64,000 nucleotides of DNA from contig OZ024742.1 in the NCBI GenBank assembly GCA_964016885.1, forward strand, positions 201,996,001 through 202,060,000, written 5' to 3'. A program made the position numbers and the translations under genes. This document shows, one piece after another, positions 13,051 to 46,200 of the stretch. Positions within the stretch are counted from its first letter, which is position 1, and every line of letters starts with the position of its first letter. The notes under the pieces are model-generated. The model searched no databases, was not told the origin of the DNA, and saw nothing but the letters and a program-made list of their open reading frames with translations. Source of the stretch: Eledone cirrhosa. Lineage: Eukaryota.

Positions 13051-13269
13051 TAGATCTAGTGTAAGCACGCTTAAATAACATGCATTGATGATTATTCACA
13101 TATAATATGCGTATACATATATGTATGTATGCATATATGCGTATACATATATGCATATATATATGCATATATGTATACGCATATATGTATACATACATAT
13201 ACGCATATATGTGAATAATCATCAATGCATGATATTTAAGCGTGCTTACACTAGATCTAACCTACTAAT
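13051..13269. repeat. Palindrome (fold-back) next to (TA)n
   Basis: attaataggttagatctagtgtaagcacgcttaaata...tatttaagcgtgcttacactagatctaacctactaat; symmetric TA/TG-rich centre. Confidence 0.85.
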
Positions 13270-13449
13270 ATATATGTATATAAGGGATATGTATACAAAA
13301 TATCGTTATAAGTAATCCAGTTAGAAGTTGTGAATACTTTTTATTATGGATAGTTTTAGCGTACGGCGTTGTTTGACTCAACAAGAGGTTTACGTAGGTG
13401 GCGAGTTTATGATTTCATTTGTATTCCTATGTAAGTTTATCTTGGAATA

Positions 13450-16197
13450 ATAAAATTGAAAAAGTGAAGAATAACATGGTCAACAGTACAAAAAAAGGGA
13501 TTTACAGTCTAACAATTATTTCACTGATTAAGTTGTCTAAAAATTGCTGAACACTAGAAGCAGTGCCACTCAATTTTAAATACGATGTTAGCTTAAATAG
13601 ATCACCAGAGACAACTACAAAATGTCCGGTAAATTTACAAATTCAAATTACAGCATCATTAATAATATTAATAATAAAGATAGAGAGATAAAAAAAGAAA
13701 GAGATAAAAGAAAGAAAGAAAAAGAAAAAGAAAAAGAAAAAGAAAAAGAAAAAGAAAAAGAAAAAGAAAAAGAAAAAGAAAAAGAAGGAGGATAGAAAGA
13801 GGAGAGAAAAGGATAAAGGAGACTTAAAGGTAGAGAAAAATAAAAATAGAGGGAAAATAATGATATCAACAATAAATGAATAAATGAATAAGGAATTTGA
13901 TAACTTACAAGGAGGAATTTATAGATACGATACATTACTTTTAGCTAAAAACCTAAATAATCAAAACTTAGAAACATTACGGAAAAAGATTAGAAAATTC
14001 TTTAATAAATAAGGCCTTAACATCACTTTTGAACTCAATTCTAAAAAGGCTAATTTCTTAGATGTATCGCTTAACCTAAACACCGGACAAATAGAACCCT
14101 TCCATAAAAATAATGAAAATTTAGCTTACATTAATTATAACTCTAATCACACTCGATCCATAATTAACTCCAGAGCACATAGTATATCCCTTAGTATCTC
14201 GCGCCTACCTTCTAATCTAGAGAATTTTAACGAACACGCCAACTACTACAACATAGCTTTACTTAAGGTAGGCCATAAAGAGTGACGCAAATACATACCA
14301 GATACAAACAATAACAACACACTTAATAGAAATAACACTATCCACACCTATAGAAGCAGCAAATCTAGGACTAAACATAGAAATTGGCAACAAGCACGAG
14401 AATTAATTGAACAGAATACTAATAAAAAGACCACTAGTAACTATAGAATATGCAGAAATAGAAAGAATTTATGGTTCAATCCAGTATTTAACTCCGATAT
14501 TAAAACAAAACTACCTTACACTTTCTTCAAATTGGTTGACAAACACTTCCGTAAAATTCATAAATATCATAAAATCTTTAATCGAAAAACTATCAAACTA
14601 TCATACTCCACTGCCAACAACATAGAATCGCACATACATAAAATTAACTATAAGAGAATTTATAATACAAGTAGCCCGCAAATAAGTACCATAACACCAA
14701 ACACAAAACACAAGCATATAACAGAACACATCACCACAATACATCAACAAACCCAATTCTCAACCCATACATAACAACATACAAAACCATATAGTAGAAC
14801 CGGCACATAGAAAAAAATCTAAATGTAACTGTCATCTACCTGAGAAATTCCCATTATAAAATAGATGCCTGGAGTCAAATATAGTATACCTACGTACTAT
14901 AAATTCAGGCAGCTTAGCATGGTACTACATAGGGTCCACAGCTGGAGAGTTTAAGAAAATGTGGTATATCCATAGACACACTATGAATAACAGGAAGCTC
15001 ATGAATAAAATCTGGCAACTCAGAGATGCAAACATGGAATATAAAATCAGCTGGACGAAGCTATCAACATCAATAGCCTATAGAATTGGCATGTCCCAGT
15101 GTGGTCTTTGTAATATGGAGCTTTTTCAAATTTTAAATTACAACAAAATGCTACCTAACATTAAAATTGAAAGAACTATTTTCTGTAGACATAAAACGGC
15201 GACCAAATCTGAGAAATTTAGACCAGCTTAATTCATCTAATCTATTCAGTAACCCACATTGTACCACTTAGATCTATTATAATATCCCATTATCATCATT
15301 ATTGTTATAATTGTCATCATCTATCAATGAAGCAACATCACAACCTCTTATATTTTACATTCATATTTTATATATCTTTATGTTTCACTTTCTATCTTTA
15401 CTATTTCTCTCCCTAAATTTATTTTATCTCTGGCATTTTATCTTATTTTATCTTATCATATCATTTTCACTTCTAATATAACTTACAACTAATTAATCAA
15501 ATAATTAATTAATTATATAATTAATTTATTAAAATAACCAATACACACATAAAATATATTTAACATTATCATGATTATACCTTCGTATCTCTCTATATTT
15601 TAACCACTCTCAATAACCACTCTCAATAATCTTAATATGTTTAAATTTCTTCGCATATTTTTAATTATTTATTTTCATATTTTGCATTATTTTGTATTAT
15701 CCTCGATGTAACTTGATTATTTATTTATTTACATTTATTCATGTATTAACATTTATTCATTTATTGTTGATATTATTATTTTTCATTTTCTCTACCTTTA
15801 TTTCTCCTTTATCCTTTACTCTTCTCTTTCTATCCTCCTTTCTCTGTGTCTTTTTTTCTCTCTATATATTTCTCTGTTTTCCTTTCTCCTTTTTCTTTTT
15901 CTTTTTCTTTTTCTTTTTCTTTTTCTTTTTCTTTTTCCTTTTCTTTCTTTCTTTTGTCTATCTTTATTATTAATATTAGTAATGATGCTGTAATTTGAAT
16001 TTGTAAATTTACCGGATATTTTGTAGTTGTCTCTGATGATCTGATTAAGCTAACATCATCGTATTTAAAATTGAGTGGCACTGCTTCTAGTGTTCACCAA
16101 TTTTAAGACAACTTAATCAGTGAAACAATTGTTTGACTGTAAATAAATCCCCTTTTTTGTACTGTTGATCATGTTATTCTTCACTTTTTCAATTTTA
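13450..16197 (+). mobile_element. Degraded 5'-truncated Penelope-like element with about 470-bp inverted terminal arms
   Basis: Fragments NFLDVSLNL..PFHKNN..YINYNSNH (RT thumb), RNRKNLWFNP..HKIFNRKTIKLSYS, and CLESNIVY..YYIGST (GIY-YIG); 13450-13915 is the reverse complement of about 15699-16197. Confidence 0.85.
16029..16137 (+). ncRNA. Type I hammerhead ribozyme motif in Penelope terminal repeat
   Basis: GTCT-CTGATGA-T-CTGATTAAG...CTTAATCAG-T-GAAA-CAATTG-TT/TGAC; palindromic stem III ACAATTGT; one stem I mismatch that is intact (AGAC) in the inverted arm. Confidence 0.7.
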
Positions 16198-43130: not shown

Positions 43131-43205
43131 ATATTCTGTGGTGACAGTCAAGTTTTCAATATTCAACAGTTGAAAATTGCAAACTTGACTGTCACCACAG
43201 AATAT

Positions 43206-43242
43206 GAACCTGAAGATTGCGAAAGCATGAAAGTACTTGTTC
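43206..43242 (+). ncRNA. Minimal 37-nt type I hammerhead ribozyme
   Basis: GAAC-CTGAAGA-T-TGC-gaaa-GCA-T-GAAA-GTAC-TT/GTTC; GNRA-capped stem II, palindromic stem III AGTACT, CUU triplet. Confidence 0.8.
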
Positions 43243-46200
43243 AATTAACACATAGAATTTAATATTCTACCATACTATTTCATTCTAATACCATTTTAAA
43301 TTTTAAATGATTGTAAATAAAACGAGTAAATCAGACAAAGTTGGAATTCCTTTTATTAATATAATCTTCTATGCACAATCATACACACCCGTGTATATTT
43401 TTATATTATATATGTATATATATATATATATATAGATATAGATATATATGCATCTATACATACATTCAAGCATAGCATATACATACATGCACATACACAT
43501 ACATGCATACGCACATACTTACAAACATTCATACATACTTAATTGTGTATTAATTTAGCGCTTTAATATAAAGCAGTACCAGACCTTGAAAATGATACTG
43601 AGATATATATGTCCAAGTGTTGGCGTTGCCCATACATGGCCACAGTCTAATAATGACTGGCACAAATAAAAAATAAAAAACAATGTTCTATACACTCTTG
43701 GATCTAGATTTGTTTTGCAAGATTATTTATCCGGCAGCAACCCCGCCTCTCTTCATTACTTAAATTTGTTTATGTACTTCTTATTTGTATTTCCATCGTA
43801 ATATAACTTCGTTTTGTAAAATAGTTGACATAATATATTTATGTTTTTATTGATTCATTGTTATTATGTAGACTAAAATTAATATTGTTATAATATGAGA
43901 GTGTAACGCTGCTATAGAAATACACACAACAGTTAAATTCCTTGGTTAATTTAGTAAACCGATGGAGTTATGCAATTGAAACCGTTCTTGTTTTTTTTCG
44001 ACGCATTCGGTGATCTTCTCAATGGCTATCATTGCTGCTCCCTGTTTCTCTGAGAGAAAAACAAAATTGAGTAAACAGAAAAAATGAAAACCGAAGAGAG
44101 ACATAGTAACACGAATTGCCATTCAGAATGTCACAAATTATTTTTCACAGTTAAGTAAACATCCGTTTACTATACAAACCGAGGAATGTATAAGTTACCT
44201 GACATAGTACAACGGAAGAGTATTTTCATTTACAGCCTGATCCACCCCTAAATCTAATAACACACATACATACATACATGCATGCATGCATGCATATATA
44301 CATACATACATACGAATATACATATGTACATACAAACATATAAACACATACATACAGACACACATATATATATATATATATATATATATACATATATATA
44401 TATATGTGTGTGTAATTATATATATATGTATTTATATATATATATATATATATATATATATATATATATGTATTTATATATATACATATGTATATATATA
44501 TGTGTGTGTGTGTGTGCGTGTGTATCCCAGAGACACACACACAAACATACATGCACACTAACACGCACACACAACACACACACATTTATATATATATGTA
44601 TATAATATATATATATAACGAAGGAAATGTGGTGAGGAACCAGAATTAGCCGCCGAAACGGCTTGAGCTCTGCCGTCGGGAGTCATACTTGTTCCTATAT
44701 ATATATATATATATATATATATATATGTGTGTGTGTGTGTGTGTGTGTGTGTGTGTGTGTGTGTGTGTGTGTATAAATGTTTGTTAGCTGAGACTATTCA
44801 TATGCATTATTATGTAGTTAAGTAAGTGTATAATCGTTAGTACTGCGCGGCACTGTCGTCTATTGACCGAGACTATACAATAACACTTTTGACACTTTCA
44901 ATTTTGATATATCGTCTGGGTGGTGACACATCATACACAACAATCATGCACTTGAGTAGTAAAACAAATCTGAAAGCTATGTATAAGTGTATATATATAT
45001 ATATATATATAGATATACGTGTGTGTGTGTGTGTGTGTGTGTGTATATACATATATAGATACATATATATATATATATATATATATATATATATATATAT
45101 ATATATATATATATATATATATATATATTTATATATATTTATATACACACACGTATATATATATATATATGTATGTATGTATGTATATATATGTATGTAT
45201 ATATATATATATATATATATATATATATATATATATATATATATATATATATATATATATATATTTATATATACATATATGTATATGTATATATACATAT
45301 GTGTGTGTGTGTATATATATATATATATATATATATATATATATATATATATGTATGTATGTATGTATATGTATGTATATATATATATATATATATATAT
45401 ATATATATATATATATATATATATATATATATATATATATATATATATATATATATATATATATATATAAGTATGTATATATATGTATATATATATATAT
45501 ATATATATATATATACATATATATATACGTGCATACATACCCAAAAGTTTATTGTTATTTGGATTTAGAATTTAACCGTCAGCTCTTGCCATTCATTCAT
45601 ACGTCACAAAACAAAAGCAAAGAAGATGGATGCCATGCTACCTAACAAATCATTTAACTTTCTGACAATATACAACAAATAGATTATCACATCATAATTA
45701 GACAAGGCCGTGATTTCCATCAGGTTTTCTAAGTTGAAAGAAACCAACAAGAACAGATTAAGAAAACGACATTATTTCATGCACATGCATTGAATCAAAT
45801 CACAAGCGTTGTAGTGTGCATTTGTGCAATATATTAAAACCAATGAGACAATATGTGTATGTATATATATATATATATATATATATATATATATATTCAT
45901 ACATGTCTTTATATTTTATTTATATATATATAAACGCAACAGCAGTATATGAACACTTGTATAAATAACAGCCACAAACTAAATTATCATATATATATAT
46001 ATAAGTTGTTGGGATGCTAATATTAACTAATTATTTACTTCTCGCTAATGAGAGATATTAAAATGCCCCATATATATATATATATATATATATATATATA
46101 TATATATATATATATACAGTATATATATAACGACATCCCTTTAGTTCGCCGTGTCATTAGCTGACCTTATGAATAGAAGCAAAATCTAGGAAAACTTATC

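Follow-up and report, generated by a model that had tools for sequence, protein, structure and literature searches.

Palindromic hammerhead-bearing insertions in a 64-kb stretch of the Eledone cirrhosa genome as probable fold-back products of truncated Penelope-like elements

Introduction

What produces an insertion in which the 3′ end of a retroelement is preceded by its own inverted copy, and is a short insertion made of little else an element in its own right? The question arises from a 64,000-nt stretch of the genome of Eledone cirrhosa (assembly GCA_964016885.1, contig OZ024742.1, positions 201,996,001 to 202,060,000 of the forward strand), which is called the window here and is numbered from its first letter. 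An original prediction, made from the letters, described seven palindromes beside TA repeats as fold-back derivatives of Penelope-like elements (PLEs), most of them carrying hammerhead ribozymes. The palindromes are named here by their starting coordinates. With moderate confidence we read the five that bear ribozymes (33367, 13450, 41053, 42973 and 38672), together with a further insert at 50219, as one-off 5′-truncated insertions of several unrelated endonuclease-bearing (EN+) PLE families whose complementary DNA (cDNA) folded back, and not as a separate class.

Much of this architecture is in print. An inverted 5′-truncated copy, a tail, (TA)n targets and non-autonomous derivatives are all described for PLEs (PMC8557442), and Penelope-13_HM of the Hydra clade is listed with hammerheads on both strands, an inverted 5′ copy and a preference for (TA)n (PMC8557442 supplement). 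Rotifer PLEs show junction palindromes and duplications of 8-10 bp, for which self-priming on an antisense template was proposed (PMC3846280), while opposite-strand pairs of minimal hammerheads 100-700 bp apart in Schistosoma mansoni were read as truncated PLEs (PMC4209133). In vitro, PLE insertion involves two starts of reverse transcription and extension of both strands, with the second-strand steps left open, and ribozyme cleavage is dispensable for it (PMC11167929). The origin of the inverted 5′ copies and the priming of the second strand are described as unresolved in the same two lines of work (PMC8557442, PMC11167929), both of which give a tail length of 30-40 nt. Related subjects, namely variable inverted repeats, retrozymes, PLE insertions truncated to very short lengths and the repeat content of octopuses, are covered by PMC2377424, PMC7229834, PMC9977147, PMC6765202, PMC13282606 and bioRxiv 2026.07.22.740005.

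Results

Geometry of the palindromes

All seven palindromes are present where they had been placed, with arms 87-98% identical when the left arm is locally aligned with the reverse complement of the right arm (gaps excluded from identity). The two longest spacers belong to 33367 (arms 33351-33985/36228-36857, 594/625 matches, spacer 2242 nt) and 13450 (arms 13447-13896/15737-16202, 410/436 with 18 gaps and partly low-complexity, spacer about 1.85 kb; self-BLAST core 13450-13886/15750-16198). The other three ribozyme-bearing palindromes are nearly closed: 41053 (arms 41053-41829/41841-42606, 750/765, spacer 11 nt, or 18 nt without a 1-nt bulge), 42973 (arms 42973-43167/43169-43363, 185/195, spacer 1 nt) and 38672 (arms 38668-38834/38855-39020, 145/166, spacer 20 nt). 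The remaining two, 13051 (arms 13040-13158/13161-13270, 107/110, spacer 0-2 nt) and 27153 (arms 27152-27223/27270-27341, 66/71, spacer 46 nt), are hairpins with no ribozyme. In a shuffle control (20 times, non-microsatellite bases), 0-2 inverted repeats were found each time at the minimal score of 16, which the real arm scores far exceed. Beyond the seven, this search also revealed inverted repeats at 23770, 31636/32613 and 50219, with another at 27062 coming from self-BLAST.

The window has a GC content of 34.7% and holds 218 TA runs of at least 8 nt, covering 9% of it. Such a run stands at one or more outer ends of every palindrome, compared with 0.7% per side at random positions, but at both ends of only one of the seven; runs of at least 20 nt adjoin three of the seven. 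Since the palindrome ends were set from alignments that run into TA, this adjacency is inflated.

An all-against-all DNA comparison of 16 segments, in which copies and relatives were sought across the 64-kb window, detected no homology of the palindromes to each other or to PLE ends, with a best cross-element E value of 0.011 over 19 nt. The insertions are therefore mutually unrelated, as had been claimed, and the non-coding ones are assigned to PLEs solely by the type, orientation and position of their ribozymes. With this reservation, five of the seven derive from PLEs, are arranged head to head, carry ribozymes and are associated with TA, and we hold the PLE identity of these five with high confidence.

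Hammerhead ribozymes

A strict type I hammerhead descriptor matched five times in the window and never in 30 shuffles. A permissive descriptor gave 12 matches, nine of them without a core mismatch; on shuffles it averaged 2.1 matches each, with two zero-mismatch matches in 12 shuffles. This permissive scan recovered 33367, 41053 and 42973 on both arms and 13450 on its right arm. The left-arm copy of 13450 and the two copies in 38672 escaped the descriptors; they were recognised by eye once the arms were aligned, and each proves to be decayed at different positions. In all five ribozyme-bearing palindromes, coding and non-coding alike, a hammerhead reads outward on each arm and its cleavage site lies 55-195 nt from where the arm ends (38672 by eye only), an arrangement shared with published Hydra families; 42973 alone retains a canonical core on both arms. 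Since the damage to the ribozymes sits at different positions, the two arms have decayed independently. The motif search found none in 13051 and 27153, as predicted.

The permissive matches at 30282 and 16542 (minus strand) and four matches with two core mismatches were treated as chance. Rfam listed no hammerhead among the 150 matches given of 275 for the window, nor in any of the 35 matches for 40400-43400; what it did list were non-specific microRNA (miRNA)-type hairpins under the gathering score. The short minimal ribozymes do not fold with better energy than shuffles (z -1.3 to +0.2).

We also noticed ribozymes that stand alone. Two of type I, both intact and on the plus strand (28906-28984 and 29153-29234), lie 247 nt apart in direct orientation with unrelated sequences; in each, stem II is branched and 50 nt long and stem III is a 10-nt palindrome (z of the folds -4.2 and -3.9, respectively). 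A third (40601-40660, z -3.4), with an extended stem I, occupies an insert between TA tracts (40420-40800, plus strand) that has no fold-back and whose 3′ TA tract is 146 nt away from the ribozyme. A long branched stem II of 50-82 nt recurs in four hammerheads (16033-16133, 38886-38965, 28910-28980 and 29158-29229) and exceeds that of the Hydra rows in the part of the PMC8557442 table compared here; it is possibly a local structural variant.

Coding elements

Clade labels below come from motif comparison by eye, not from a tree. The most complete element, 33367-36841 (plus strand), consists of an inverted 3′-end copy (33367-33985), a frame (about 33986-36206) and a 3′ terminal repeat (36228-36841). 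The frame encodes a decayed reverse transcriptase (RT) followed by a GIY-YIG endonuclease and is truncated near the N-terminus. Pfam recognises RVT_1 (E 2.6e-4) and GIY-YIG (PF01541, E 1.9e-8), and a protein search returned 555 matches, the best of them RT plus GIY-YIG proteins at 64% identity and E 1e-107. Against a profile of relatives, built from 50 of the 120 matches listed, the protein spans positions 9-743 of 744. Its linker contains CGRLNCGIC (CX4CxxC) upstream of LIYVLTCSGCQEHYIG, and the GIY-YIG domain is of the CCHH type. Together with a DKG motif these features resemble the Neptune clade, defined by a CX2-5CxxC linker and a CCHH endonuclease (PMC8557442), and on its motifs the element is Neptune-like by these definitions. 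The right hammerhead (36604-36655, plus strand; type I, bulged stem I, predicted cleavage after 36646) and its inverted copy (33558-33609, minus strand; predicted cleavage at 33567) both carry the U3-A8 core variant that is reported for Schistosoma PLEs (PMC4209133). A candidate 30-nt one-sided tail (33321-33350, minus strand) lies between two TA-rich tracts on the side of the inverted arm, and may be host DNA.

A more decayed element at 13450-16197 (plus strand) has an inverted 3′-end copy (13450-13886), a coding remnant (about 13887-15231) that starts just before RT motif C and reaches GIY-YIG, and a long 3′ untranslated region. Pfam gave no match in three pieces and searches with two protein fragments, which covered longer proteins only, gave none either; a PLE profile matches at E 4.8e-5, and GIY-YIG-like Atlas clusters at 0.93-0.96. 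By eye, the segment WFNP..KLVDKHF..HKY.KIFNR and the CxC linker match Hydra-clade rows of the PMC8557442 supplement. The clade is characterised by a CxCX5C linker, no CCHH and a divergent RT; here CxC is present, the position of the third cysteine is decayed, and no CxxC occurs between GIY and YIG. The element appears to be a Hydra-like PLE remnant, although it is badly decayed and its 82-nt branched stem II is longer than in any Hydra row of the table portion compared. Its right hammerhead (16021-16144, plus strand; type I, predicted cleavage after 16133) has an intact core, and the inverted copy (13507-13612, minus strand; recognised by eye) is decayed with a core mismatch. The ribozyme region folds stably (z -4.2), but in a non-ribozyme arrangement.

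The palindrome at 41053-42606 is a near-perfect duplication of a PLE 3′ end around a centre at 41826-41843. The original prediction had extended it to 42648; the palindrome itself is real, but its right arm ends at 42606, and what follows (42607-42647, plus strand) is a 41-nt one-sided tail before (AT)n. An open remnant of 79 codons (41821-42057) encodes the C-terminal half of a GIY-YIG domain (Pfam PF01541, E 0.0037), with a best relative 71% identical and 263 relatives at E of at most 0.001; four of six long relatives scanned contain both RVT_1 and GIY-YIG. The centre falls within the Y[IV]GST motif, the second of GIY-YIG, 780 nt from the end, a motif matched in 90/97 cases among 150 relatives. 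A centre inside an endonuclease motif marks a truncation point and not a designed end. Two relatives (P0140 and P0208) show a DKGGEF-type RT motif and a short cysteine linker like the Nematis rows of the PMC8557442 supplement, and through their motifs, matched by eye, 41053 would be Nematis-like; unlike a full Nematis element, it keeps only half the endonuclease, and the RT region is truncated away. Its minimal type I hammerhead (42460-42498, plus strand; predicted cleavage after 42493) has one core change, which recurs in the mirror copy (41161-41199, minus strand), so that the source RNA probably had it; the one-core-mismatch class also arises by chance.

The coding labels of the original prediction (RT and GIY-YIG in 33367, a remnant of both in 13450, half a GIY-YIG in 41053) are thus borne out by Pfam, the PLE profile and Atlas clusters, and remnants of RT and GIY-YIG with features of three clades support the reading as PLE insertions. 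A direct upstream terminal repeat was found in none of the three coding copies.

Non-coding palindromes

The insertion at 42973-43363 has 195-bp arms. Its right hammerhead (43205-43243, plus strand) is minimal, with a palindromic stem III and predicted cleavage after 43238, and is identical to that on the inverted arm (43093-43131, minus strand); the layout is that of tabulated Hydra-clade ribozymes (PMC8557442 supplement). In 38672-39020 the arms are 166 bp long and the spacer is closed by a GC-rich stem; its hammerhead (38881-38970, plus strand) is decayed, with a long stem II, and the mirror copy (38719-38808, minus strand) is damaged at other positions. Candidate target duplications, neither of them TA, were found for both: 7 bp at 42952 and 43363 for 42973, and 9 bp at 38640 and 39020 for 38672. 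If real, they imply that the short TA ends belong to the element or to a small target, not to a long (TA)n.

Like MITEs (miniature transposable elements with inverted repeats), both insertions are short and non-coding, with long inverted repeats and TA at the edges. Unlike MITEs, the palindromes here have outward-reading ribozymes of PLE type, one-sided tails, candidate duplications of 7-9 bp, which in these two lie 14 and 23 nt beyond the left arm, and no multicopy family in the window. They also share small size, lack of coding capacity and a type I hammerhead derived from a PLE terminal repeat with non-LTR (LTR, long terminal repeat) retrozymes (PMC7229834; bioRxiv 10.64898/2026.07.22.740005), which as described there are direct tandem repeats with circular RNAs, whereas 42973 and 38672 are inverted pairs with no direct repeat. 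In a read-through RNA, 39/39 ribozyme bases of 42973 and 83/90 of 38672 would be paired with the opposite arm. The small palindromes resemble the shortest members of a series of truncations. As most of the hammerheads are damaged or would be buried in a hairpin, these insertions are probably dead ends, from which hairpin RNA may be the most that is made.

The insert at 50219 and a doubtful pair

An additional hammerhead-bearing insert, absent from the original prediction, lies between TA tracts at 50219-50664 (plus strand). Within it, 76 bp of internal sequence (50356-50431) recur in inverted orientation across a 61-nt spacer, and the inverted arm breaks off about 230 nt before the 3′ end is reached. 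It also has a 47-bp direct repeat with copies 333 bp apart, a partial tandem of monomer size that recalls non-LTR retrozymes. The hammerhead relic (50474-50550, plus strand) is of type I, with three full stems, one core mismatch and predicted cleavage after 50531; matches with 15 bp in three stems, as here, occurred in 4/20 shuffled whole windows, and its fold (z -3.39) was equalled in stability by 1/200 shuffles. An inverted repeat pair beside (ACAT)n (31636-31771/32613-32740, 88% identical, 841-nt spacer) has a hammerhead-like half motif at its arm ends (10/2000 shuffles), and is possibly a further fold-back element or a MITE.

Other features of the window

Several non-LTR retrotransposons and exons of ligand-gated ion channel genes share the window, and the named protein matches are bivalve records at about 50-62% identity. 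Homologous exons of nicotinic-receptor-type channel genes at 38319-38441 (Pfam Neur_chan_LBD, E 1.2e-9) and about 49520-49640, both on the minus strand, suggest tandem genes or duplicated exons; the 38672 palindrome is some 230 nt from the first. An intact 1141-aa non-LTR frame with RT and a zinc-binding C-terminus (6470-9895, plus strand) ends in (AAT)n, and its last 940 bp recur in tandem at 10048-10988 (91% identical). Three related endonuclease-RT non-LTR copies (20775-21905, 54167-56815 and 57300-62656, plus strand; 78-80%) each have (TATC)n, and one an upstream frame. A dispersed family of about 200 bp, resembling short interspersed elements (SINEs), has at least seven copies at 79-99% identity, including 1294-1602, 2095-2296, 46696-46878, 47183-47385, 50803-50923 and 51656-51846. 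Lastly, a short 3′ fragment of a frame of long interspersed element (LINE) type (29474-29632, plus strand; tblastn E 1.5e-5) sits between two (TA)n tracts, which means that non-PLE elements also occupy TA tracts here.

Discussion

A cDNA snap-back would connect these observations as follows. The GIY-YIG endonuclease would nick AT-rich or (TA)n DNA, and RT would start cDNA near the RNA 3′ end, at either of two starts 30-40 nt apart, as occurs in vitro for another PLE, which would leave a one-sided tail. RT would then leave the RNA at a variable point, which the truncation points place 167 nt to 2.9 kb from the end, and the cDNA 3′ end could fold or jump back onto the same cDNA, usually nearby, its extension giving a reverse copy of the ribozyme-bearing 3′ end. 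Copying would halt once the end of the element was reached or earlier, usually at a TA or TATA, after which the strand would be joined to the other target side, at times with a short duplication; the arms have since decayed independently. The hammerheads would be passengers of the terminal repeat. The original prediction had likewise suggested snap-back second-strand priming; we favour it as an inference, but self-priming of PLEs from palindromes at their junctions had been proposed in 2013 (PMC3846280). In its favour is the spacing: loops of 1, 11-18 and 20 nt in three of five palindromes. For two independent truncated cDNAs to end within 20 nt of each other has a probability of 0.013-0.049 in each case, and 2e-5 to 1e-3 for at least three of five, values that rest on two assumed length distributions. 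Loops this short are unlikely for independent cDNAs and favour folding in cis. The 41053 centre, a truncation point within the Y[IV]GST motif, also speaks for it. Furthermore, the inverted arm at 50219 is a copy of internal sequence, an outcome not expected had a second start been made at the RNA 3′ end.

The strongest competitor, though we think it unlikely, is two RT events, in which a PLE protein dimer nicks both strands, copies two RNAs from their 3′ ends, and the truncated cDNAs are joined head to head. Such a course agrees with the Poseidon PLE, which nicks and extends both strands in vitro and was modelled as a dimer (PMC11167929), and it accounts for tails on one arm or the other, the inverted arm of 33367 among them, and for kilobase spacers; the spacers of 1-20 nt would fit it poorly unless both cDNAs annealed at a local palindrome, and so would the internal start of the 50219 arm. 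Less probable still is that the palindrome was made earlier, at the RNA level by antisense self-priming or in a master copy that moves as a unit, in which case the small palindromes would be a true non-autonomous family bearing ribozymes. Antisense-template self-priming was proposed for rotifer PLEs, whose terminal repeats contain palindromes of 18-38 bp (PMC3846280); non-autonomous PLE derivatives exist (PMC8557442; PMC9977147; bioRxiv 2026.07.22.740005); and 42973 keeps a canonical core on both arms despite 10/195 differences between them. On the other side, neither a second copy nor a relative of any palindrome was found in the window, the unit-length RNA would be one long hairpin with its ribozyme fully paired, opposite-strand copies presumably could not form a dimeric ribozyme in cis (judging from PMC4209133), and retrozymes as described in PMC7229834 are direct tandem repeats. 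The non-autonomous palindromic class of the original prediction is accordingly unsupported: the copies are single and unrelated in the window, the 41053 centre interrupts the endonuclease frame and the ribozyme would be buried in the hairpin. An assembly or library artefact of polymerase read-back chimeras is highly improbable. Palindromes beside microsatellites are hard to assemble (PMC8557442), but the arms differ by 2-16%, mainly by substitutions (transitions about equal to transversions overall), which argues against read-back, the ends match element termini, tails and candidate target duplications, and the window contains no N.

Classical twin priming on one RNA inverts a segment but leaves the 3′ end unduplicated, and it was rejected on that ground.

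The ribozyme-free hairpins call for separate treatment. The first (13040-13270) has a unique arm of about 58 bp, a palindromic centre of TA/CA-rich microsatellite and a 22-nt one-sided extension ahead of (TA)n; the second (27153-27341), with 72-bp arms, has (TA)n on the left only. Two shorter hairpins with TATATA centres (23770-23807 and 27062-27120) adjoin TA tracts and are possibly TA-primed inverted duplications of flanking DNA. As an account of the whole set, inverted duplications made by the host with self-complementary TA tracts as primers, or else MITEs with duplicated TA, are very doubtful; for these four hairpins the chances are roughly even. Unlike the PLE palindromes, 13051, 23770 and 27062 are centred on TA-type sequence, and in 13051 and 27153 no hammerhead or hammerhead half-motif, no trace of coding sequence and, across the window, no homology with PLE ends was found; a frame beside 27153, considered as a PLE N-terminus, was rejected for want of a protein match or profile support. 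Weighing the other way, arms below about 110 nt would be too short for a ribozyme in most families here, and 13051 has its one-sided extension. The hairpins at 13051, 23770 and 27062 may have originated in the host as inverted duplications, or be PLE ends of insufficient length to hold a ribozyme. With no PLE marker the ribozyme-free hairpins cannot be filed as PLE and stand outside our claim, while for the five main palindromes ribozymes and RT/GIY-YIG remnants exclude the MITE reading.

Several observations weigh against cDNA snap-back as the origin of the five palindromes and the 50219 insert. The hammerheads at 28906, 29153 and 40601 are intact and have no inverted partner within 3 kb, so that fold-back is frequent, not universal (5/8 ribozyme-bearing inserts, or 7/10 counting 50219 and the doubtful 31636); the original statement that hairpin formation is the rule was too strong. 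The innermost arm is not significantly more stable than the arm background (Fisher P 0.08-0.15 for the five elements, 0.07-0.45 for eleven inverted repeats), and junction-stability P values of 0.004-0.06 were reached only in a subset chosen post hoc. For 41053, DNA folding predicts a lowest-energy structure other than the productive pairing (about 2 bp, then a bulge and 3 bp), and the junction background count of 12/710 was set aside because the productive register was missed. In 33367 the 30-nt candidate tail adjoins the inverted arm; unless this piece is host DNA, copying of the first cDNA could not have produced it there. The 41-nt tail of 41053 is on the coding arm. Spacers of 1.85 and 2.2 kb require long-range jumps, and short spacers may be over-represented, being easier to notice. 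The 50219 tandem copy shares 1 nt of microhomology, candidate target duplications in 2/10 elements are suggestive only against a null of 66/1500 (7 bp) and 16/1500 (9 bp), and other copies were sought in 64 kb only.

Compared with known systems, these insertions are closest to EN+ PLEs as covered in PMC8557442, PMC3846280 and PMC2377424, with which they share a C-terminal GIY-YIG after RT, 5′ truncation, an inverted 3′-end copy at the 5′ junction, a one-sided tail of 30-41 nt, short target duplications, AT-rich targets and a terminal-repeat hammerhead. A PLE-type RT is found in 33367 and 13450, GIY-YIG in these two and 41053, and an inverted pseudo-LTR in all five, RT being absent by truncation from 41053, 42973 and 38672. 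What sets them apart from the EN+ PLEs in the described portions of these sources is that several are short enough for the palindrome to make up the entire insert, and that mixed clades occur at high density within 64 kb. Elements 13450 and 42973 compare with Hydra-clade entries such as Penelope-13_HM and Hydra-1_Obim (PMC8557442 supplement), and the S. mansoni dual hammerheads have opposite-strand pairs and the U3-A8 core variant in common with the set, but in the available sections of PMC4209133 the pairs are not analysed as palindromes and their formation is not discussed. A literature search over titles and abstracts, outside which older subscription papers fall, returned no palindromic ribozyme-bearing PLE-derived family and no test of cDNA snap-back in PLEs, which is weak evidence of absence.

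In summary, this is a known architecture in new families, and the mechanism, a reasonable refinement, is partly supported; with the architecture already familiar, the surprise is low. A bolder extension, which we consider improbable, is that fold-back is the usual second-strand priming for PLEs of three clades in this genome, and that some short products such as 42973-43363 are now self-propagating palindromic retroelements with fixed centres, filed as MITEs, which could feed hairpin small RNAs against their parent families. In annotation, inserts of this kind can in any case pass for MITEs or miRNA hairpins, their ribozymes going undetected by Rfam. Dense, short and unrelated, they form a cheap test set for models of second-strand priming, in which loop lengths, junction microhomology, tail side and arm-specific variants separate snap-back from two-RNA and antisense self-priming schemes. 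If cDNA snap-back is true, the head-to-head orientation of these PLE copies would arise from sense RNA, with no need for the antisense template proposed in PMC3846280.

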